A stretch of DNA of 64,000 bases from an uncultured Muribaculaceae bacterium (GCA_964536025.1 CAZHXA010000002.1:14684-78683); one strand, 5' to 3'. Counted from the first letter of the stretch, positions 8,717 through 18,254 are shown. Numbers and translations are program-made. Notes: generated by a model not told the origin, from the sequence alone.

Positions 8717-10054
8717 ATGAATGCAACCGAAGTTTTAAATGGTTTGAGAAGACGATTCCCTAATGAGCCTGAATATTTGCAAGCGGTGGAAGAAGTTATA
8801 ACAACAATCGAAGAAGAGTATAACAAGCACCCTGAGTTTGAACGCTACAATCTTATAGAGCGTTTGTGCTTGCCCGACCGCATTTTTTCGTTCCGCATAT
8901 CGTGGGTCGACGATAAAGGTAGAGTGCAAAACAACATGGGCTACCGCATACAGCACAACAATGCCATAGGTCCTTATAAAGGAGGAATACGTTTTCACTC
9001 ATCGGTGAACCAATCCATTTTAAAATTCCTTGCATTTGAGCAAACTTTCAAGAACTCGCTCACTACATTGCCTATGGGTGGCGGTAAGGGCGGTTCCGAC
9101 TTCAGTCCTAAGGGAAAAAGTGATATGGAAGTGATGCGTTTCTGTCAAGCTTATATAGCTGAGTTATGGCGTCACATAGGTCCCGATACCGACGTGCCTG
9201 CAGGAGATATAGGTGTGGGTGGTCGTGAAGTGGGCTACATGTATGGTATGTATAAGAAAATGGCACGTGAAAACACAGGTACTTTCACCGGTAAGGGATT
9301 GGAATTTGGTGGCTCTTTAGTGCGTCCCGAAGCTACAGGATATGGCAATGTCTACTTCCTGCTTAATATGCTGGCTACTCGTGGTATCGACATTAAAGGT
9401 AAGAAAGTGGCTATCTCGGGTTCGGGAAATGTGGCTACTTATACTGCCGATAAATTGCTTAAAATAGGAGCAAAGGTTGTAACAATGAGCGATTCCGATG
9501 GTACTATTTATGTGCCCGACGGACTTACTCGCGAACAACTTGATTACATCTTTAAGTTGAAAACCATTTATCGCGGACGCATAAGAGAATTTGCCGAAGA
9601 ATATGATAATTGCCAATACTTTGAAGGTGAACGTCCGTGGAAGGTGAAGTGCGATATTGCTATGCCGAGTGCTACTCAAAACGAATTGGATGGCGATGAT
9701 GCACGCATGTTGCTTGCAAATGGTGTAATTGCTGTGTCGGAAGGGGCAAATATGCCTTCTACTCCTGAGGCTGTGCATGAGTTCCTTAATGCAGGTATTC
9801 TATATGCTCCGGGTAAGGCCGCCAATGCCGGAGGAGTATCGGTTTCGGGGCTTGAAATGGCTCAAAATTCGCAAAAACTTTCTTGGAGTGCCGAAGAAGT
9901 TGACGCTAAGTTGCAAAGCATAATGAAGAATATACACGAACAGTGTGTTAAATATGGACGTCAAGACGATGGTTATGTAAATTATGTGAAAGGTGCTAAT
10001 GTGGCAGGCTTCATGAAAGTGGCTAAGGCTATGATGGCACAAGGTATAATTTAA
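8717..10054 (+). CDS. gdhA: NAD(P)-specific glutamate dehydrogenase
   Basis: 445 aa. Contains the LPMGGGKGGSDF catalytic-Lys motif and the GSGNVA dinucleotide fold. Confidence 0.95.
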   Translation: MNATEVLNGLRRRFPNEPEYLQAVEEVITTIEEEYNKHPEFERYNLIERLCLPDRIFSFRISWVDDKGRVQNNMGYRIQHNNAIGPYKGGIRFHSSVNQSILKFLAFEQTFKNSLTTLPMGGGKGGSDFSPKGKSDMEVMRFCQAYIAELWRHIGPDTDVPAGDIGVGGREVGYMYGMYKKMARENTGTFTGKGLEFGGSLVRPEATGYGNVYFLLNMLATRGIDIKGKKVAISGSGNVATYTADKLLKIGAKVVTMSDSDGTIYVPDGLTREQLDYIFKLKTIYRGRIREFAEEYDNCQYFEGERPWKVKCDIAMPSATQNELDGDDARMLLANGVIAVSEGANMPSTPEAVHEFLNAGILYAPGKAANAGGVSVSGLEMAQNSQKLSWSAEEVDAKLQSIMKNIHEQCVKYGRQDDGYVNYVKGANVAGFMKVAKAMMAQGII

Positions 10055-10079
10055 ACTGAAATCTGAACGGTCAGAATTT

Positions 10080-10137
10080 AAAGGTGAAAACTGAGAGGTG
10101 AAAGCTATTACATTTCATCTTTCAGTTTTCACCTTTT
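10080..10137 (+). terminator. long hairpin downstream of gdhA (15-bp perfect outer stem), probable terminator
   Basis: AAAGGTGAAAACTGA (10080..10094) pairs perfectly with TCAGTTTTCACCTTT (10122..10136), with further near-pairing inside the loop. Only a short T4 tract follows. Confidence 0.5.
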
Positions 10138-10439
10138 ATGCCGGAGGCATTATACGATGTATTAACCGACGCGTGAGAAAGACCGATAGGGCTTTCTCCA
10201 TGTGCGGTATACACACAGACCCCACCCCGACAGCAGTTTCCGGAGGAAACCATATAAAAAAAACAAGCAGAGGTCGGATTGTTCCGACCTCTGCTATATT
10301 TATTATCTATAAGTTTCGCTATTAAAGCACTACTTTGCTTGTGCGAGAACCTTGTTTCTTAATGAAAATACCATTTGATGGATTTTCTACCTTAACACCT
10401 TGCAAGTTGTAGTATTCCACAGGTGCGTTAGCATCTACA
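10132..10439. repeat. outer inverted repeat, left arm (308 bp)
   Basis: Reverse complement of 13194..13439. Identical over the last 118 nt of CDS, and nearly identical over the 3' UTR and terminator. Carries a 61-bp extra segment (10171..10231). Confidence 0.9.
10253..10294 (-). terminator. rho-independent terminator of the 10322..11467 gene
   Basis: GCAGAGGTCGGA-TTGT-TCCGACCTCTGC, followed by a T8 run on the minus strand. Confidence 0.8.
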
Positions 10440-11467
10440 TCAACAGTTTCGATAGCTGTAGTCAAGTTTTCTGGGACTGTAAATGTATATCTTGTAACAA
10501 ATTTATTTGGATGGAAATGGTAAATATATGCTTGGTTTTCTGAAAATTTTTGTACGGTCAAAGCTGTAATCTGTCCGGATGTAGTAGCACTTAAAGTTTC
10601 AGGAATAGTTGCTATAACTTTATCTGAGAAGCGGTCAACAATTTGGAAACCATCATAATAATTAGTTCCGGCAGGTTCTATAGTAAATAGTATGTTGTTA
10701 AATGTTACAACGTCATGACCTGCACTGGCATTTACATTTCCAACTCTATTATATGCAACCCATTTAGATGCAGTGTTTTGATAATATATGTCCTTATTTG
10801 AACGATTTCTAACTGTAATTTCATCACTTTCAGGCTCATTGGTTAATGGTTGTACTATCATTTGTGTATTGTTTGTAGCTGTTAGTGCAATAACTTTTGA
10901 CTTTTCTGCAACATATTCACCATTGGCAAAATAACACTTGATAATTTCTTTTGTGTTGTTTAAAGCAAAGAAGAAAGCACCACCGTCTTCGCTGAAAATA
11001 TCACCAACACCGCGTCCCATATAGTCCATACGTCCTATAGTAGCACCCAAATTTGTAAAAGATTCTGTCAAATCTATTTCGTTAGAAACTTTGTTTGTTG
11101 TTGCGTTCCATAGAACCACTTTGAAGTTAGTAGCAGCACCGTGTCCTGTCGATCTTACTACGGCATTACCTTTGCTATCAAAGTTGAAAGATGTACCTGC
11201 AGCTGTAATTCCTTCAACGGTTGAACGTTCTACTTTTTTAGTAGATTTATTGTAGGTAAAGCGATCTAATTTAGCATTCGTACCATATGTCTTCACATAA
11301 ATATCACCGTTGTAACCTGAACCGAAAATTGCACTTGATGTAGGAACATCTGTAGAAGTCCAATCCTTTGTAAGTGTGAAGCCTTTAGCTACACCCTCTA
11401 CTGCTGTTTGAGCGTTTAGTGAAGCCGAAAGGGCTAAAACGCAAATTGAAAGTAAAACTTTTTTCAT
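10322..11467 (-). CDS. secreted T9SS cargo protein, function unknown (beta-rich, propeller-like)
   Basis: 381 aa. Signal peptide MKKVLLSICVLALSASLNAQ. C-terminal Por-secretion-tail-like domain (VEYYNLQGVKVENPSNGIFIKKQGSRTSKVVL). Confidence 0.75.
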   Translation of the reverse strand: MKKVLLSICVLALSASLNAQTAVEGVAKGFTLTKDWTSTDVPTSSAIFGSGYNGDIYVKTYGTNAKLDRFTYNKSTKKVERSTVEGITAAGTSFNFDSKGNAVVRSTGHGAATNFKVVLWNATTNKVSNEIDLTESFTNLGATIGRMDYMGRGVGDIFSEDGGAFFFALNNTKEIIKCYFANGEYVAEKSKVIALTATNNTQMIVQPLTNEPESDEITVRNRSNKDIYYQNTASKWVAYNRVGNVNASAGHDVVTFNNILFTIEPAGTNYYDGFQIVDRFSDKVIATIPETLSATTSGQITALTVQKFSENQAYIYHFHPNKFVTRYTFTVPENLTTAIETVDVDANAPVEYYNLQGVKVENPSNGIFIKKQGSRTSKVVL

Positions 11468-11486
11468 TTCCTTAAGTTTTTAGATT
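11451..11486. repeat. inner inverted repeat, left copy (36 bp, perfect)
   Basis: Exact reverse complement of 11718..11753. Covers the first 17 nt of CDS plus 19 nt of leader of gene 10322..11467. Confidence 0.95.
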
Positions 11487-11612
11487 AGTAATAATTAATT
11501 GTTTATATAAAAAATAAATATTTTACTTAATTTCCTCTTTAAGTACGCTAAAATCATTATTTTCGGCGGTATCCCCAAATTCCCGCCAATCATTAATAGG
11601 TTTTATGTGTTG

Positions 11613-11644
11613 CAAAGCTATAAATTTTAAAACTAATGAGCAAA
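11613..11644 (-). promoter_or_regulatory. full Bacteroidetes-type promoter (TTTG-N20-TAGCTTTG) pointing toward gene 10322..11467
   Basis: On the minus strand, TTTG is at 11644..11641 and TAGCTTTG(CA) at 11620..11613, with a 20-nt spacer, 146 nt from the ATG at 11467. A second -7 box, TAGATTTG, lies at 11693..11686. Confidence 0.55.
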
Positions 11645-11687
11645 TATTTGAACAAAAAAAGTTTAAATAGTTTTCAAAATGTTCTCA

Positions 11688-11701
11688 AATCTAAAAACTT
11701 A
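11688..11701. repeat. partial third copy (14 nt, AATCTAAAAACTTA) of the inner repeat, direct relative to the right copy
   Basis: Read directly; identical to 11718..11731. Confidence 0.8.
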
Positions 11702-11717
11702 GAGATAATATTTCCTG

Positions 11718-11753
11718 AATCTAAAAACTTAAGGAAATGAAAAAAGTTTTACT
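11718..11753. repeat. inner inverted repeat, right copy (36 bp, perfect)
   Basis: AATCTAAAAACTTAAGGAAATGAAAAAAGTTTTACT. Covers the leader plus ATG plus the first codons (MKKVLL) of gene 11737..13311. Confidence 0.95.
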
Positions 11754-13311
11754 AAGTTCTATTTTGGCATTGGGTAGCCTATGTACCTTAAATGCTCAAA
11801 TGACTAAAGGCGTACAAGCTCGTATCTATGCTTATGGTTTGCAACAAACTAAAGGTCAGGCTGTGGTAGAAAATGGTAGTATAGCTTCTTACACTTTGAC
11901 ATTCAAAACCAACACTGCTGCAACTTCTGCAAAAGTTAATTTGATGAAAGGTGAAACCGTTGTAGCAAGTTTTGAGGCTGAAGCAACCGATGCAACTAAA
12001 AAATCATGGAAAGCTGTAGTAAATGCAAGCAAGGTAGGAGAAGCCGGCACTTATACATGGGAAGCCGAAGTTTCAGCTCCTGCAGTAAAAAGCTGGGCTA
12101 CAATCTCAGATCATACAAATAACAAAGATAATTTTGTTTTTTACCGTTCTTACGGATTGGCTATTGATAATAATCCGGAAAATGATGCATTTGGAACAAT
12201 TTATGCTGTAAACCAAGCAACAGCCGCCAACTATACTAAGGGTATAGGTATGTGGACTTACAGTCCTGAATTGACATTACTAAACAACTCTCCTTATTCA
12301 ATTGAAGGCGTGATTGGAGATAAAAATACTGGAGAGTCTCCTTCTGATATGGCAATCGACTCTAAGGGTCTTTTGTATTTGTCAAATAACTCAACTAATG
12401 GATCAGGTGTTTATGTTGTTGATCCTACTCAAAATTACAGTGCAAAACAAATATTTGAAGGAACTCGCGAAAATGGTGTAATTAAAGATACTGACGGTAA
12501 CGAGATTTCGTCTATGGTTGCTGCTGTAGGAGTATATGGCAAAGATTCCGATAGAGAGATCTTTACTATTGATAATGCAACAGGTGGAGTTACTGATTTT
12601 TATATTAAGAGATATGAAATAGGTTCTCAGGAAACTTGGAACACTGAAGCAAGCTTTAAACAAAATAAATTTGCTATTTCTGAAACAGGAACCATGTCTA
12701 TTGTTAATAAAAATTGTGCTATAGAACCAATCGCAGAAGGTTATTGGATTTCTCAATATAGAACAGCAACATCAAAGAATGAACCTCTTTTAGCATTTAT
12801 CAACAATAATAATGAAGTAAAATATAACTATAATTTAGCTAATGACAGCTTTACCGGAAGTTCTCAAAACGGAGCTATTGCTGTTGATGAAAAGACTAAG
12901 ACTGTAGCGGTTGCTAGTGCTAATAATGTTATTATAATGAATTACAATATAGCTACAGATGGGAAAGTTACAACTTCAAATGAAAAAACTTACTCACTTA
13001 CAGACAATCATCGTCGTCCTAATGATATGGCTTTCGACTATGCCGGAAACTTGTATAGTGTAACTTCAAACAAAGAAACACTAAGTGTGTGGTCAGTTCC
13101 TACAGAAAATAATATATGCAAAACTCCTGCAAAGAGCACCATGACTATCGAAATTACTTCAAGCGATATTCAAACAGGTGTTGAAGAAGTGGGTGTAGAT
13201 GCTAACGCACCTGTGGAATACTACAACTTGCAAGGTGTTAAGGTAGAAAATCCATCAAATGGTATTTTCATTAAGAAACAAGGTTCTCGCACAAGCAAAG
13301 TAGTGCTTTAA
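11737..13311 (+). CDS. secreted T9SS cargo protein, function unknown (NHL/beta-propeller-like repeats)
   Basis: 524 aa. Signal peptide MKKVLLSSILALGSLCTLNAQ. Repeat-like segments SPSDMAIDSKGLLYLSN and RPNDMAFDYAGNLYSVT. The C-terminal 39 aa are identical to those of the 10322..11467 product. Confidence 0.75.
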   Translation: MKKVLLSSILALGSLCTLNAQMTKGVQARIYAYGLQQTKGQAVVENGSIASYTLTFKTNTAATSAKVNLMKGETVVASFEAEATDATKKSWKAVVNASKVGEAGTYTWEAEVSAPAVKSWATISDHTNNKDNFVFYRSYGLAIDNNPENDAFGTIYAVNQATAANYTKGIGMWTYSPELTLLNNSPYSIEGVIGDKNTGESPSDMAIDSKGLLYLSNNSTNGSGVYVVDPTQNYSAKQIFEGTRENGVIKDTDGNEISSMVAAVGVYGKDSDREIFTIDNATGGVTDFYIKRYEIGSQETWNTEASFKQNKFAISETGTMSIVNKNCAIEPIAEGYWISQYRTATSKNEPLLAFINNNNEVKYNYNLANDSFTGSSQNGAIAVDEKTKTVAVASANNVIIMNYNIATDGKVTTSNEKTYSLTDNHRRPNDMAFDYAGNLYSVTSNKETLSVWSVPTENNICKTPAKSTMTIEITSSDIQTGVEEVGVDANAPVEYYNLQGVKVENPSNGIFIKKQGSRTSKVVL

Positions 13312-13439
13312 TAGCGAAACTTATAGATAATAAATATAGCAGAGGTCGGATTGCTCCGACCTCTGCTTGTTTTTTTATATGATTTCCTCCGGAAACTGCT
13401 GTCGGTTAAGACACCGTGTAATGCCTCCGGCATAAAAGG
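13194..13439. repeat. outer inverted repeat, right arm (246 bp)
   Basis: Reverse complement of 10132..10439 (see left arm). Confidence 0.9.
13339..13376 (+). terminator. rho-independent terminator of gene 11737..13311
   Basis: GCAGAGGTCGGA-TTGC-TCCGACCTCTGC followed by TTGTTTTTTT. Confidence 0.85.
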
Positions 13440-13445
13440 AGGTGT

Positions 13446-15023
13446 TTAAAAAGGTACGGGGTCTTCGCCTTTAGACATTAGAAAGTCTTCGTTTCGTGGC
13501 GGTAGATTTTCGGGCATAGGCACATTCATCATAGGAGCATTATCATTGGCAGGAGGATTGTCATCGTTCATCTTAGAACCCATAGGTTCGGTGTATTCGC
13601 TTCTGATAGAAGTGTAATTATCGTCCCAATTGTCAAATCGTGCAAATTGTCCTACGAAACGCAACTTGATGTCATCAACCGAACCACTACGGTGCTTGGC
13701 AACGATGAATTCGGCAAGTCCGCGAATGTCGTTCCCCTCGCTGTCTTCCGATGCTTTGGTGTAATATTCCGGGCGGTGAATGAAACACACAATATCGGCA
13801 TCTTGCTCAATGGCACCCGATTCACGCAAGTCGGATAGCTGAGGGCGTTTCCCATCGGTACGGTTTTCCACGCTACGGTTCAACTGCGACAATGCTATGA
13901 TAGGTATAGATAATTCTTTAGCCAATTGCTTTAACGAACGCGAAATCATACTTACTTCTTGTTCACGGCTTCCGAATTTCATGCCACTTGCATTCATCAA
14001 CTGCAAATAGTCTATTATGATGATTTTCACGCCATGTTCACGCACGAGTCGTCGAGCTTTGGTTCTCAATTCAAAAACCGACAAGCTCGGTGTGTCATCG
14101 ATGTATAGCGGTGCAGAATAAAGCATTTTAATCTTTGTCATCAACTTATCCCATTCAAATTGTGATAACTGACCGCTTTTAATCTTTTCGCTTTCAAGTT
14201 CGCACACGTTACTTATAAGACGATTGACAAGCTGGAGATTTGACATTTCCAGAGAGAAAATAGCGACCGGAGAGTTGAAGTTTACCGCCATATTTTTTGC
14301 CATAGATAGCACAAAAGCCGTTTTACCCATTGCCGGACGTGCCGCAATTATAATCAAGTCGCTTTCTTGCCAACCCGAAGTAAGTTTGTCCAACTTGTGG
14401 TATCCTGTTTGCAAACCGCTCAATCCACTTTCTCTATTTGCGGCATCTTCAATCTTTTTTATAGCTTCGCTTATGACAGGGTCAATCTGCGTAACGTCCT
14501 TTTTTACATTATGTTGAGTGATCTCAAAAAGTCGCCCTTCGGCTTCTTGTAAAAGGTCATCGACATCGTTAGATTCGTCGAAAGCTTTGGTCTCAATAGA
14601 AGAACAAAATGTGATAAGTTCACGAGCAAGATACTTTTGAGCTACAATGCGAGCGTGATACTCCACATTGGCAGCACTCGACACACGTCCTGTGAGTTCG
14701 GAAATACGTAAAGCTCCCCCCACAGCATCCAAATTACCGTCGAGACGCAACTGCTCGGTTACGGTAAGCATGTCGATGGGTCGCTGCATGGCACCAAGAG
14801 CCTGAATAGAAGCGTAAATTTTTTGGTTGCGTGCATCGTAGAAGCTCTCGGGCTTTAAAATGTCACACACTACCACATAAGCATCTTTTTCAAGCATTAA
14901 TGCACCCAATACGGCTTCTTCCAAATCGGTGTCTTGAGGTTGCAATTTACCTATTTCGAGCATTGCTTTGTCTTGCTTTCTCGACTGTTTGTAATTGTTG
15001 TACGGTCTATCTTCGTTTGCCAT
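13446..15023 (-). CDS. dnaB: replicative DNA helicase DnaB
   Basis: Walker A (ARPAMGKTAF) and typical DnaB N- and C-domains. Start re-called to the ATG at 15023 (MANEDR...) because the track TTG at 15050 lies inside the -7 box. Has a low-complexity P/N-rich C-terminal tail. Confidence 0.95.
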   Translation of the reverse strand: MANEDRPYNNYKQSRKQDKAMLEIGKLQPQDTDLEEAVLGALMLEKDAYVVVCDILKPESFYDARNQKIYASIQALGAMQRPIDMLTVTEQLRLDGNLDAVGGALRISELTGRVSSAANVEYHARIVAQKYLARELITFCSSIETKAFDESNDVDDLLQEAEGRLFEITQHNVKKDVTQIDPVISEAIKKIEDAANRESGLSGLQTGYHKLDKLTSGWQESDLIIIAARPAMGKTAFVLSMAKNMAVNFNSPVAIFSLEMSNLQLVNRLISNVCELESEKIKSGQLSQFEWDKLMTKIKMLYSAPLYIDDTPSLSVFELRTKARRLVREHGVKIIIIDYLQLMNASGMKFGSREQEVSMISRSLKQLAKELSIPIIALSQLNRSVENRTDGKRPQLSDLRESGAIEQDADIVCFIHRPEYYTKASEDSEGNDIRGLAEFIVAKHRSGSVDDIKLRFVGQFARFDNWDDNYTSIRSEYTEPMGSKMNDDNPPANDNAPMMNVPMPENLPPRNEDFLMSKGEDPVPF

Positions 15024-15047
15024 TTCTACATTTTTGTTTTCTCTGTG

Positions 15048-15055
15048 CAAAGTTA
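15048..15055 (-). promoter_or_regulatory. -7 box TAACTTTG for dnaB
   Basis: CAAAGTTA on the plus strand, 25 nt upstream of the ATG at 15023. Confidence 0.5.
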
Positions 15056-15151
15056 ATGAAACGCTGTTTATAACAAAAACTATTCACCTTAATATTCCTC
15101 ACATTTTTTTCACAGTATTGTTCACAATGTGATAATATGAAAAGTATTTTG

Positions 15152-15159
15152 TAATTTTG
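15152..15159 (+). promoter_or_regulatory. -7 box TAATTTTG for ispE
   Basis: TAATTTTGCA 24 nt upstream of the ATG at 15183; divergent from the dnaB promoter. Confidence 0.5.
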
Positions 15160-15182
15160 CATCTGCTAAAATCATAAAATAC

Positions 15183-16004
15183 ATGATAAAATTTCCTAAC
15201 GCCAAGATAAATTTGGGTCTCGACATAGTGAATCGACGTCCCGATGGATACCACGACATAGAAACAGTGTTTTATCCCATAGCATTGCAAGATATAGTGG
15301 AGATAGTGCCGGCTCGTGGCAGTGAAACTACACTCACAACCTATGGCAGAGTGATAGATTGCCCTATGGAAAAAAATCTTGTGGTTAAGGCTTATCGCTT
15401 GATGGAAAAAGAGTTTGATTTGCCACCGGTGGATATTTATTTGCATAAAAATATCCCCGATGGAGCCGGATTGGGTGGAGGATCTTCAGATGCGGCAAAT
15501 GTGTTGCTCGCACTCAATGAGATGTTTGAACTTAACCTCACAAAAGAAGAACTTGCCAAGCGAGCCGCACGTTTGGGTGCCGATTGTGCTTTTTTTATTT
15601 ATAACAGCCCGATGATGGCAACCGGAATAGGTGATGTGTTGTCTCCAATAGACGTGCCTTTGCATGGTAAAACGTTGCTGTTGGTAAAACCCGACGTGAG
15701 TGTGCCTACTGCCGAAGCCTATTCAAGAGTTACGCCTCGCAAGAGTGACACTCCGCTTGCCGAAGTTATAAAAATGCCTATCGACAAGTGGAAAAACGCT
15801 TTGAAAAACGATTTTGAGCCGAGTGTATTTTCGACACACCCTGAATTGAGTGAAATAAAGGATAAAATCAAGCAGTCGGGAGCCGTTTATGCTTCAATGA
15901 GTGGCTCAGGTTCATCGATTTTCGGCATTTTTGAAAGTGCCAATATGGCAGAAAAAGCCAAAAAAATATTTGAAGGGATGAATTCTTATGTTATAAATCT
16001 CTAA
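15183..16004 (+). CDS. ispE: 4-diphosphocytidyl-2-C-methyl-D-erythritol kinase
   Basis: 273 aa. N-terminus has AKINLGL, and the GHMP kinase motif PDGAGLGGGSSDAA is present. Confidence 0.9.
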   Translation: MIKFPNAKINLGLDIVNRRPDGYHDIETVFYPIALQDIVEIVPARGSETTLTTYGRVIDCPMEKNLVVKAYRLMEKEFDLPPVDIYLHKNIPDGAGLGGGSSDAANVLLALNEMFELNLTKEELAKRAARLGADCAFFIYNSPMMATGIGDVLSPIDVPLHGKTLLLVKPDVSVPTAEAYSRVTPRKSDTPLAEVIKMPIDKWKNALKNDFEPSVFSTHPELSEIKDKIKQSGAVYASMSGSGSSIFGIFESANMAEKAKKIFEGMNSYVINL

Positions 16005-16146
16005 AAGGGAAGTAGTCAAGCAAGACATTTGCTATTAATGTGTCATTTTGGCAATGTTTTTGCTAATAACAATTTTACATGCGACAAATCGCGTCCGGAT
16101 TTGTCGTAAATTGGTATAATTGCAAAAAATAAAGAACACTATATAT

Positions 16147-16716
16147 ATGAGTAACAAGGAAGATTTAAAAAACGAAGAAACAGTAAACGAAGTGGAAGAA
16201 ACAGCCGAAAAAGAGGCGGTTGCTGAGGAAAACGCACAGGAACAACCTGTAGAAGCTACTCCGGAAGAACGTATAGCCGACTTGGAAGCTAAACTTGAAA
16301 AAGAAAAGAAAGAATATATGTTCTTGATGGCGGAATTTGACAATTTCCGCAAACGTTCGATAAAAGACAAAGCCGAAATCATTAAAAACGGTGCAGAAAA
16401 CGCAATGCGTAACATTTTGCCAATAATCGACGATTTCGACCGAGCAATCGAAGCCAATGCCAAAAGCGATGACGTGGAAGCCCTTCGTGAAGGTGTGGAA
16501 CTTATATATAATAAGTTCGTTAAATATCTTGAAAGCAACGGTGTAAAAGAAATGAAAACCACGGGGGAAACATTTGATGCCGACGTGCATGAGGCTGTAA
16601 CAACATTCCCTGCTCCAAGCGAAGACTTGAAAGGCAAGATTATCGACACGGTGCAAAAAGGCTATTCCATCAACGATAAAGTGTTGCGACACGCTAAAGT
16701 TGTGGTTGGTCAATAA
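16147..16716 (+). CDS. grpE: nucleotide exchange factor GrpE
   Basis: Acidic N-terminus, a GrpE core (AEFDNFRKR ... V.KGY....KVLR.A.V.V), and position directly before dnaJ. Start re-called to the ATG at 16147. Confidence 0.9.
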   Translation: MSNKEDLKNEETVNEVEETAEKEAVAEENAQEQPVEATPEERIADLEAKLEKEKKEYMFLMAEFDNFRKRSIKDKAEIIKNGAENAMRNILPIIDDFDRAIEANAKSDDVEALREGVELIYNKFVKYLESNGVKEMKTTGETFDADVHEAVTTFPAPSEDLKGKIIDTVQKGYSINDKVLRHAKVVVGQ

Positions 16717-16743
16717 TTTTTTATTCAACAAAACAATCACACA

Positions 16744-17925
16744 ATGGAAAAAAGAGACTACTACGAAGTGCTTGGTGTTGCAAAAACAGCAACAGCCGAT
16801 GAATTGAAAAAAGCATATCGTAAAAAGGCTATTGAATATCATCCCGACCGTCAGCAAGGTAAAAGCGAAGAGGAAAAGAAGGCTGCCGAAGAAAAATTCA
16901 AGGAAGCAGCTGAGGCTTATGACGTGTTGAGTAATCCCGATAAACGTGCAAGATATGACCAATACGGTCACGCCGGAATGAATGGCGGTGGTTTTGGCGG
17001 AGCAGGTGGCTTTGGCGGAGCGGGAATGTCAATGGAAGACATTTTTAGCCACTTTGGCGACATCTTTGGTGGTGGCTTCGGCGGTTTTAGTGGCTTTGGC
17101 GGTGGTGGTCGTCGTGGTGGCGGTCGTCGTCGTCAAAATGTAGGTGACGATTTGCGTATCACCGTGCATGTATCACTTAAAGATGTAGCACACGGCTTGA
17201 CAAAGAAAATCAAGATTCCACGCTATGTTTCTTGTAAGACTTGTAACGGAACAGGTGCTGAAAACGGAACCGATTTCACTACATGCTCGGCTTGTAACGG
17301 TAGCGGTACACAAATACGCACACAACAAACCATGTTCGGCATGATGCAATCAGAAACCGTATGCCCCAACTGTCATGGTGAGGGTCGCATAATCAACCAT
17401 AAATGTAAGGATTGTGGTGGAGAGGGTGTTGTTAAGAGCGAAGATGTGGTAACTATAAACATTCCTGCAGGTGTTGCCGATGGAAATATGTTACGCATGC
17501 AAGGCAAGGGTAATGCACCACGTCATGGTGGAATTTCTGGCGATTTGCTTATTGTGATAGCCGAAGATAAAGACCCTGAATTGATTCGCGACGAAAACAA
17601 TATCATTTATAACTTGATGATAGATTTCCCGACAGCCGTTTTCGGTGGAAAAGTGGAAGTGCCTACTATCGACGGTGTGGCTCGTGTAACCATCGAACCG
17701 GGAACACAGCCGGGCAAAGTGTTGCGATTGAAAGGTAAAGGTTTACCTTCTCCTAATTATTATGGTACGGGCGACGAATATATCAATATATCTGTTTATG
17801 TGCCTGAAACACTTAATAAGGAAGAACGTGAAGCTATAGAGAAACTTCGCGACAGTGAAAATATAAGGCCTACTGAGGAGAAAAAGAAATCTATTTTTCA
17901 ACGCATGAGCGATTTCTTTCAATAA
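16744..17925 (+). CDS. dnaJ: molecular chaperone DnaJ
   Basis: J domain with HPD (YHPDR), a G/F-rich region, and four CxxCxGxG zinc-finger repeats. Confidence 0.95.
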
Positions 17926-17994
17926 ACAGTAAAATGACATCTTGATTTATTAAGAAGGCGTTTAGGTACTGCCTTTTGTGGGTGATGAGATAGA

Positions 17995-18027
17995 GAAACG
18001 ATGTGAATCAAAGATTCACATCGTTTC
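17995..18027 (+). terminator. hairpin downstream of dnaJ
   Basis: GAAACGATGTGAATC-AAA-GATTCACATCGTTTC, a perfect 15-bp stem; the T tract is weak. Confidence 0.5.
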
Positions 18028-18254
18028 ATCGTTTATATTGTAGATAGCTTAGTAGAAACTGAAATGTTAAAACTCATAACTGAAAACAGAGTGGTTAATG
18101 TCTTCGGCATTTCTTTGTTATTCAAAAAACACTATCTCCACTAAATTTCTACTGACCCCAAATTCTTTATGTTTAGGTTGGCAACACTATACTCTTGACA
18201 CCGTCTCCGCCCACCGAAAAAAAAACGCTGACTCCTTTTTGGGGGTAGGGGGAT

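Follow-up and report, generated by a model that had tools for sequence, protein, structure and literature searches.

The window, a 64,000-nt stretch of DNA from an uncultured Muribaculaceae bacterium (GCA_964536025.1, CAZHXA010000002.1:14684-78683), contains a 3.3-kb cassette (10132-13439; all coordinates are window positions) of two head-to-head genes, here named A and B. With a probability of about 70%, this cassette is a two-way promoter-inversion switch between A and B, the ends of which are kept alike by gene conversion. The host genome is a 75-contig draft of 2.0 Mb with a G+C content of 36%. The same locus is present on contig L001 (ERZ27271044), an independent assembly from a different sample. 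The housekeeping proteins of L001 are 96-100% identical to those of the window genome, with a synonymous divergence (dS) of 0.14-0.22, and L001 thus represents another strain, either of the same species or of a sister species. The genes and the region between them are as follows:

10322..11467, minus strand: gene A, 381 aa; secreted protein with a 6-bladed beta-propeller and a short C-terminal tail (open reading frame; AlphaFold, predicted local distance difference test (pLDDT) 87; Foldseek)
11451..11486: left switch repeat, with 19 nt of leader, the ATG and five codons of gene A
11487..11717: invertible segment of 231 bp with a minus-strand promoter (-33 box TTTG, 11641-11644; -7 box TAGCTTTG, 11613-11620)
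11688..11701: additional internal copy (the third) of the repeat's inner 14 nt, AATCTAAAAACTTA, located 16 nt inside the right repeat
11718..11753: right switch repeat, with the leader, the ATG and five codons of gene B
11737..13311, plus strand: gene B, 524 aa; secreted protein with an immunoglobulin (Ig)-like domain, an NHL-type 6-bladed beta-propeller and the same tail (open reading frame; AlphaFold, pLDDT 87; Foldseek)

The two switch repeats (11451-11486 and 11718-11753) form a perfect inverted repeat of 36 bp with 100% complementarity. A preliminary description of this DNA had regarded these 36 bp as a homogenised 5' leader; they are really the inverted-repeat pair of an invertible promoter, which points the opposite way in L001. 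As the repeats take in the leader, the ATG and the first five codons, there is no room for a promoter belonging to A or B alone. A motif scan recognised the promoter TTTG-N20-TAGCTTTG as the Bacteroidota-type consensus, which faces A in the window genome and B (plus strand) in L001, and found no perfect -7 box on the opposite strand of the 231-bp segment. Since the promoter lies near the centre of the segment, a leader of ~139 nt results in either direction. In a BLASTN comparison, positions 7716-8017 of L001 match window positions 11753-11451 on the opposite strand with 96% identity, and the flanking genes A and B match on the same strand. Reading both genomes side by side reveals a clean inversion between identical repeats, with A and B collinear. 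Both promoter orientations hence occur in nature with unchanged flanks. The internal 14-nt copy of the repeat carries a second -7-like box, TAGATTTG, on the minus strand, and similar partial copies are found in L001 and at two of the related loci described below (L005 and L007); its role may be that of an accessory site for the recombinase or of an alternative site for crossover.

According to the mechanism that we propose, A and B are alternative Sec-exported beta-propellers, which would share the leader, the start, the first codons and a tail of ~33 to 45 residues, and which would both lack a promoter of their own. Inversion via the 36-bp repeats would aim the single promoter on the 231-bp segment at either A or B, and the cell would presumably make only one of the two proteins at a time. 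The conservation of the repeat motif across loci suggests that a sequence-specific enzyme is involved, and the inversion is most likely catalysed in trans by a tyrosine recombinase.

The second pair of repeats is located at the outer ends of the cassette and comprises the 3' ends of both genes, their terminators and several short palindromes:

10080..10136, plus strand: gdhA terminator hairpin, an inverted repeat with 24-nt arms that folds as a long hairpin and abuts the left arm
10137..10152: palindrome TATGCCGGAGGCATTA, resembling repetitive extragenic palindromic (REP) elements, as the outermost part of the left arm; the rearrangement of the dnaB block in the sister strain has a breakpoint here; a few related copies are dispersed in the genome
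10171..10231: 61-nt segment of the left arm, which both L001 arms also contain; lost from the right arm by a deletion between CCGAC repeats
10236..10250: second small palindrome of the left arm, GTTTCCGGAGGAAAC; partner at 13382-13396; three to four further copies in the genome
10267..10294, minus strand: intrinsic terminator of gene A with a 12-bp GC-rich stem, loop at 10279-10282 and a U-run on the transcript
13339..13366, plus strand: intrinsic terminator behind gene B, with the same stem as the A terminator, a loop at 13351-13354 and a T-run at 13367-13376
13370..13439: distal portion of the right arm, which contains two palindromes, ATTTCCTCCGGAAAC (13382-13396) and the REP-like TAATGCCTCCGGCATA (13419-13434)

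Repeat search and alignment agree that the left arm (10132-10439) is the reverse complement of the right arm (13194-13439), as had been claimed, and the similarity of the inverted copies reaches 10132-10459 on the left and 13174-13439 on the right. It comprises the segment pairs 10257-10459/13174-13376 (203 nt, 94% identity), 10227-10262/13370-13405 (97%) and 10132-10170/13401-13439 (92%); BLAST returned 213 nt at 97%. The longest exact run is 157 nt (10283-10439, the reverse complement of 13194-13350), which covers most of the 3' untranslated region (UTR) that had been described as nearly identical. Alignment also bears out the reported identity of the final 118 nt of the two genes (10322-10439 and 13194-13311) and of their last 39 residues; over the last 48 residues, 41 are shared. 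Both genes end with the double stop TAATAG; the hairpin GCAGAGGTCGGA-N4-TCCGACCTCTGC and a U-run come next and fold as an intrinsic terminator. The arms differ in length (308 versus 246 nt) because of the 61-nt segment at 10171-10231 and a one-base difference in a T-run, in which the left arm has one T more. As the 61-nt segment is found in the left arm and in both L001 arms, the difference is a deletion from the right arm. In L001, the arms are 89% identical to each other over 307 nt and the promoter repeats measure 37 bp. The coordinates also confirm the position that had been given for the cassette, which extends from within the gdhA terminator hairpin (10080-10136) to 6 nt before the dnaB stop codon (13446-13448). 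When read on one strand, the terminator loops are TTGT (10279-10282) and TTGC (13351-13354), despite the inverted relationship of their stems. One loop has thus been flipped inside its palindromic stem, as only one mismatch remains if it is flipped and four if it is not; in L001, both loops are proper inverted copies.

The preliminary description had interpreted the two 3' ends as a mosaic maintained by gene conversion, and a four-way alignment of the A and B arms of the window genome and L001 supports this. The coding tails of A and B are identical at 117 of 117 positions within the window genome and at 116 of 117 (99.1%) within L001, but only 97.4-98.3% identical between the genomes. The arms contain five concerted sites, namely two synonymous differences in the coding tail and three in the distal part, and no orthology sites, which would group A with A and B with B; by contrast, 33 orthology sites are found in the 96 columns just upstream. 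The hairpin variant is likewise specific for the genome and present in both of its arms (GGA/TCC in the window genome, GGGA/TCCC in L001), and the tract of identity begins at GTAGATGCTAAC in both genomes with a sharp boundary. Judging by the dS between the strains, which is 0.14-0.18 in all genes, the arm copies had time to diverge. As read from the alignment, the pattern is characteristic of ongoing gene conversion in a tract whose boundary is sharp and conserved. We propose that the tail-coding ends, the terminators and the REP-like distal element are homogenised by repeated gene conversion between close inverted copies. The tail sequence, which is conserved by selection, would probably seed the conversion, the REP-like palindromes would limit it on the distal side, and the homogenisation of the arms would then be a by-product.

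The tails recombine more widely than between A and B, since over 116 nt that of A matches the tail of an unlinked paralogue on contig C55 (2646 bp) with 94% identity, the body of this paralogue being only 35% identical; in sequence terms, this match is a mosaic signature. The C55 paralogue is A-like (379 aa), and its upstream region contains one half-site resembling the switch repeat. Copies of a combined module of C-terminal domain and terminator had been suspected elsewhere in the genome. When 200 nt of coding sequence and 250 nt of 3' flank were compared among all 16 genes of the genome that carry the tail, the similarity of pairs other than A/B ended at most ~29 nt past the stop codon and mostly at the stop codon itself. 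The similarity of A and B continues ~95 nt past the stop codon and, beyond the 61-nt gap, up to the REP-like tip. Identity from tail to tail is typically 72-83%, as compared to 100% for A and B. A genome-wide module was thus rejected: the tail recurs in 16 genes, the 3' UTR is common to A and B alone. Contigs C5 and C16 have tail genes at their ends, the tail DNA of which is 94% identical and one of which starts ~100 nt from the end of C16; they may be the two halves of another switch that was broken by the assembler.

The layout is not restricted to the cassette locus. Head-to-head pairs of A-like and B-like genes are present at five other loci in other genomes (L004, L005, L006, L007 and L047), with 5' repeats of 39-123 nt, which include the ATG, and 3' arms of 120-260 nt with 79-96% identity. 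When the window and L001 are included, the 5' repeats range from 36 to 123 nt and the 3' arms from 120 to 307 nt, and all pairs have the motif AATCWWAAAMTTAARGA upstream of the ATG in common. In three of the five other pairs, the arm enters the 3' UTR by 69-120 nt, with bodies that are as little as ~33% identical. This recurrence marks the layout as a family trait, which homogenisation of the tails tends to accompany. A metagenome scan with the 27-nt repeat core gave no match, and a scan of a genome collection with an 18-nt motif gave 20, of which 19 are single chance matches in unrelated taxa and one is located at a contig end of a Muribaculaceae metagenome-assembled genome; apart from confirming the family, these matches carry no information. 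A further locus, L054-L063, was compared with L007: nine assemblies of one species have no divergent partner gene, the left repeat is degenerate, variable tandem repeats of ~70-87 nt are found upstream and the promoter has a single orientation. Going by these sequence features, it is a decayed, locked switch.

Between their constant ends, the two proteins have little in common. The N-terminal domain of B is Ig-like, and the best Foldseek matches of the B model are the filamin-NHL region of Lin41 and 3HRP from Bacteroides thetaiotaomicron; the Foldseek matches of the A model are beta-propellers. BLASTP and profile-profile comparison (hhalign) of the A and B families aligned only the last ~56 columns, and homology is confined to the last ~45 residues. 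The bodies are thus not detectable paralogues, which agrees with the lack of similarity noted beforehand. In the structure models, the likeness of the bodies is one of general fold class only, both being propellers. The Sec signal peptides of both proteins end with LNA-Q, and A19 and Q20 are nearly invariant among the homologues. Named homologues are few and mostly derive from Muribaculaceae. Compared with L001, the ratio of nonsynonymous to synonymous divergence (dN/dS) is 0.71 for A, with a hot region at residues ~160-280, and 0.36 for B, whereas it is 0.00-0.10 for neighbouring genes at equal dS. Such values point to exposed propeller surfaces under diversifying or relaxed selection.

The surroundings of the cassette have been rearranged between the two strains, and one further feature is involved:

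13401..18040: dnaB-ispE-grpE-dnaJ block, inverted in L001, where it flanks the cassette on the opposite side; followed at a short distance by a degenerate REP-like palindrome (18095-18111)

The gene order is gdhA, A, B, [dnaB-ispE-grpE-dnaJ], deoR in the window genome and gdhA, [dnaJ-grpE-ispE-dnaB inverted], A, B, Y1 transposase, deoR in L001. Accordingly, dnaB abuts the B arm in the former and the A arm in the latter, and the cassette is flipped relative to dnaB. All rearrangement junctions coincide with the REP-like palindrome TAATGCCTCCGGCATTA, copies of which form the extreme ends of the two arms and follow shortly after the block on its side away from the cassette. Besides the promoter flip, the gene orders imply that at least two nested inversions relate the strains, and the strain comparison is consistent with an inversion of the whole cassette through the arms, which the preliminary description had considered. 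As a side effect of the proposed mechanism, the arms and palindromes would be prone to recombination; they mark the breakpoints of larger inversions that distinguish the strains. Both window arms resemble the B arm of L001, and identity in the UTR and distal part is silent on whether the crossover took place in the tails or in the palindromes. In seven other species of the genus, the 10 kb next to gdhA contain no cassette and no dnaB block and hence give no polarity to the gene order. In L001, a gene for a Y1 transposase, related to REP-associated tyrosine transposases (RAYT) and IS200, is located between the cassette and deoR (9780-10870) and is flanked by several REP-like palindromes; the corresponding window region (18040-18237) lacks the gene and retains only the degenerate palindrome at 18095-18111. 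A Y1_Tnp gene is also variably present beside the related locus L055-L062. The palindromes TAATGCCTCCGGCATTA and GTTTCCTCCGGAAAC resemble REP elements with their RAYT (Pfam Y1_Tnp) in being short, intergenic and located at gene ends, with L001 having copies at its arm tips as well as on both sides of a Y1_Tnp gene. Unlike REP elements, they occur in only ~6-8 copies in the window genome, and there is no orthologous Y1_Tnp at the locus; the sole relative in this genome is 27% identical and lies on contig C58, and any activity is putative. A search of Rfam returned only sub-threshold hairpin matches.

Several of these observations could be explained differently. In a model of modular cargo exchange, the constant ends would serve as recombination anchors for swapping whole bodies among members of the family, with the cassette as a docking site for interchangeable cargo, and the arms would be selected for this role. 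The pairs at the other loci do mix bodies (A/A', B/B' and A/B), B-like propellers also terminate proteins of ~1200 aa, the tail of A has the mosaic relation to the unlinked C55 paralogue described above, and an A-like body from Candidatus Limisoma has a canonical C-terminal domain (CTD) of the DUF6383 type in place of the short tail. However, the same A and B bodies are present in both strains, which means that no exchange has taken place since their split; the UTR part of the arms occurs nowhere else in the genome and offers no guide for exchange with other loci, and donor or silent cassettes were not found, which makes this model unlikely. We give even less weight to the idea that the outer arms are a site of programmed or frequent inversion, either RecA-dependent or mediated by REP/RAYT, at which the whole cassette flips as a second layer of variation. 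It would account for the opposite orientation of the cassette relative to dnaB, for breakpoints that all lie at the REP-like palindromes of the arm tips and for the Y1 transposase gene beside the L001 cassette, which is flanked by the same palindromes, and a 157-nt exact repeat is ample for homologous recombination. Yet a cassette flip leaves the relation of genes and promoter unchanged, and no phenotype is expected from it; the at least two nested inversions needed are more like an occasional rearrangement than a switch, identity in the UTR and distal part does not pair orthologous arms, and the Y1 transposase is absent from the locus in the window genome.

A single recent copying of one 3' end onto the other, by inverted duplication or one conversion without continuing homogenisation, is very improbable. 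The arms are 97% identical, and the loop, the 61-nt deletion and five to six substitutions could post-date one such event; but both strains have near-identical tails within the genome, with genome-specific changes in both copies, and arms that contain the UTR recur in independent pairs with 92-96% identity next to bodies as low as ~33%. An assembly artefact, in which a collapsed or duplicated repeat junction created the arms, had been named as a danger from the outset, as a 157-nt exact inverted repeat in a 75-contig draft is hard for short-read assemblers. This explanation has become practically negligible, because the separate L001 sample yielded the same architecture with the same two genes, arms and 37-bp promoter repeats; moreover, both open reading frames are intact and end in the conserved tail of the family. 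The reading as a promoter switch with converted ends has to contend with several points of its own. Only two strains are known for the cassette locus, and the concerted pattern is based on five sites. There is no recombinase gene near the cassette and no serine recombinase in the genome, and none of its six tyrosine recombinases lies by the locus or is assigned to the switch. At the related locus (P0136; ten assemblies), nine strains show no flipped promoter, the partner gene being deleted and one repeat degenerate. In two of the seven pairs (L004 and L047), the 3' similarity ends at the stop codon, and sharing of the UTR is hence not universal. Finally, a short-read assembler could set the orientation of the 2.75-kb interior arbitrarily because of the 157-nt exact repeat.

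The common tail had been labelled a type IX secretion system (T9SS) sorting domain beforehand, and this label is not verified, as the tail fails the curated CTD models. Its motif PVEYYNLQGVKVxNPxNGIFIKKQGxKxxKVVL closes 16 full-length genes of the genome, and two fragments carry it as well. A profile of the tail matched 33 of 37 genomes of the family, with 3-56 copies in 31 of the 33 and a single match in two, and none of 24 genomes from other families of the order. Proteins A and B have no match in Pfam or NCBIfam at E<=1, and thus none to PF18962 or TIGR04183, and the tail itself is not recognised by the models PF18962, TIGR04183 or DUF6383 (PF19910). A search of the whole genome with TIGR04183 placed 17 other genes above the cut-off, none of which is a short-tail gene. 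With ~33 conserved residues, the tail is about half the size of the T9SS type A CTD, an Ig-like beta-sandwich of ~70-100 residues, and in the AlphaFold models it consists of three short strands (A, 350-380; B, 493-523) behind a low-confidence disordered linker, with no full beta-sandwich. The hhalign comparison of the 16 short tails with 15 canonical CTDs of the same genome gave a probability of 49.6% and an E-value of 1.7e-4, and the alignment is end-anchored and in register with the last CTD strands (pattern Y-x-L-x-G-x-x-V ... G-I-Y/F-I ... K-V-V-L).

The tail resembles the type A CTD (TIGR04183/PF18962) and DUF6383 in its position at the extreme C-terminus of Sec-exported proteins of a genome with a T9SS translocon; it differs from both in its half length, the missing model match and its limitation to one family. 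The translocon, the alignment with the genome's own CTDs at the intermediate probability given above and the canonical DUF6383-type CTD on the A-like body from Candidatus Limisoma speak for a T9SS-type signal only indirectly. The translocon protein SprA is encoded in the same genome (2751 bits), and the cargo proteins have N-terminal Sec signals; since SprA was found in 60 of 61 relatives, its co-occurrence with the tail has no discriminating power. On the sequence evidence, T9SS-dependent sorting is a plausible function of the tail, the membership of which in the T9SS domains is not established. A more far-reaching proposal, which we regard as speculative and rather doubtful, is that the ~33-residue tail is a distinct outer-membrane sorting signal of the Muribaculaceae, for a minimal T9SS or another route, and that the head-to-head pairs, with their identical leaders and identical tails and terminators, are a dedicated "plug-in" architecture. 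A family-specific recombinase would flip the promoter, recombination at the constant ends would exchange or reset the bodies, and the arms would be selected rather than by-products. A literature search on T9SS tails or two-way invertons in Muribaculaceae found no reports.

Invertons of the Bacteroidales are known as promoter switches of capsular polysaccharide and surface-protein genes in Bacteroides fragilis and B. thetaiotaomicron (Kuwahara 2004, PMC522005; Yan 2022, PMC8748976; references in PMC9881135). The A/B switch resembles them in the short promoter segment between inverted repeats, the TTTG/TAnnTTTG promoter, the surface or secreted proteins that are controlled, the occurrence of both orientations in nature and, presumably, a recombinase acting in trans. 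In contrast to the on/off control of one operon, the A/B promoter would choose between two divergent genes; its repeats cover the ribosome-binding region of either gene as well as its ATG and first five codons, the window genome has no Mpi-type serine invertase, and the controlled genes share a homogenised 3' end. A two-way choice is made by the sap S-layer system of Campylobacter fetus, in which one promoter is located on an invertible element between opposed sapA homologues with conserved 5' ends. The sap repeats comprise ~600 bp of coding sequence, and the inversion is RecA-dependent. Both systems would redirect one promoter between two divergent surface-protein genes, with a constant end as the inverted repeat; the A/B repeats are only 36 bp long and contain a motif conserved between loci, which suggests a site-specific enzyme, and a second constant end (tail and terminator) is repeated as well. 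The outer arms are comparable to tufA and tufB of Salmonella, inverted paralogues under concerted evolution by gene conversion. In both cases, inverted copies on one chromosome would be kept near-identical via recombination and can invert the DNA between them, but in the cassette only the last 118 nt of coding sequence and ~125 nt of 3' UTR are homogenised, and the copies belong to non-homologous genes and lie 2.7 kb apart. Each component is of a known kind; what is new is the combination, the family-specific tail without a model and the repeated occurrence within the family.

Among gut bacteria, the Muribaculaceae are a dominant group that has received little study, and their ways of varying the surface are largely unknown. 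A switch between fast-evolving secreted propellers could help the cell to evade phages or antibodies or could alter what it binds. The tail falls outside Pfam and NCBIfam, and because current T9SS models miss it, proteins with the short tail are annotated as "hypothetical protein", as are most homologues. In the arms, concerted evolution is confined to gene ends, which makes them a small and clear-cut example of it, and repeats of this type can scramble synteny and confuse assemblies.

Another contig of the same genome, outside the window, contains an inverted repeat of a different kind. At C4:76966-78321, a perfect pair of 286-nt inverted repeats is separated by 784 nt and covers the start and the N-terminal plug-like region of a SusC/TonB-type gene, with a pair of 21-nt repeats nested inside. 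This looks like a separate inversion locus of the shufflon type.

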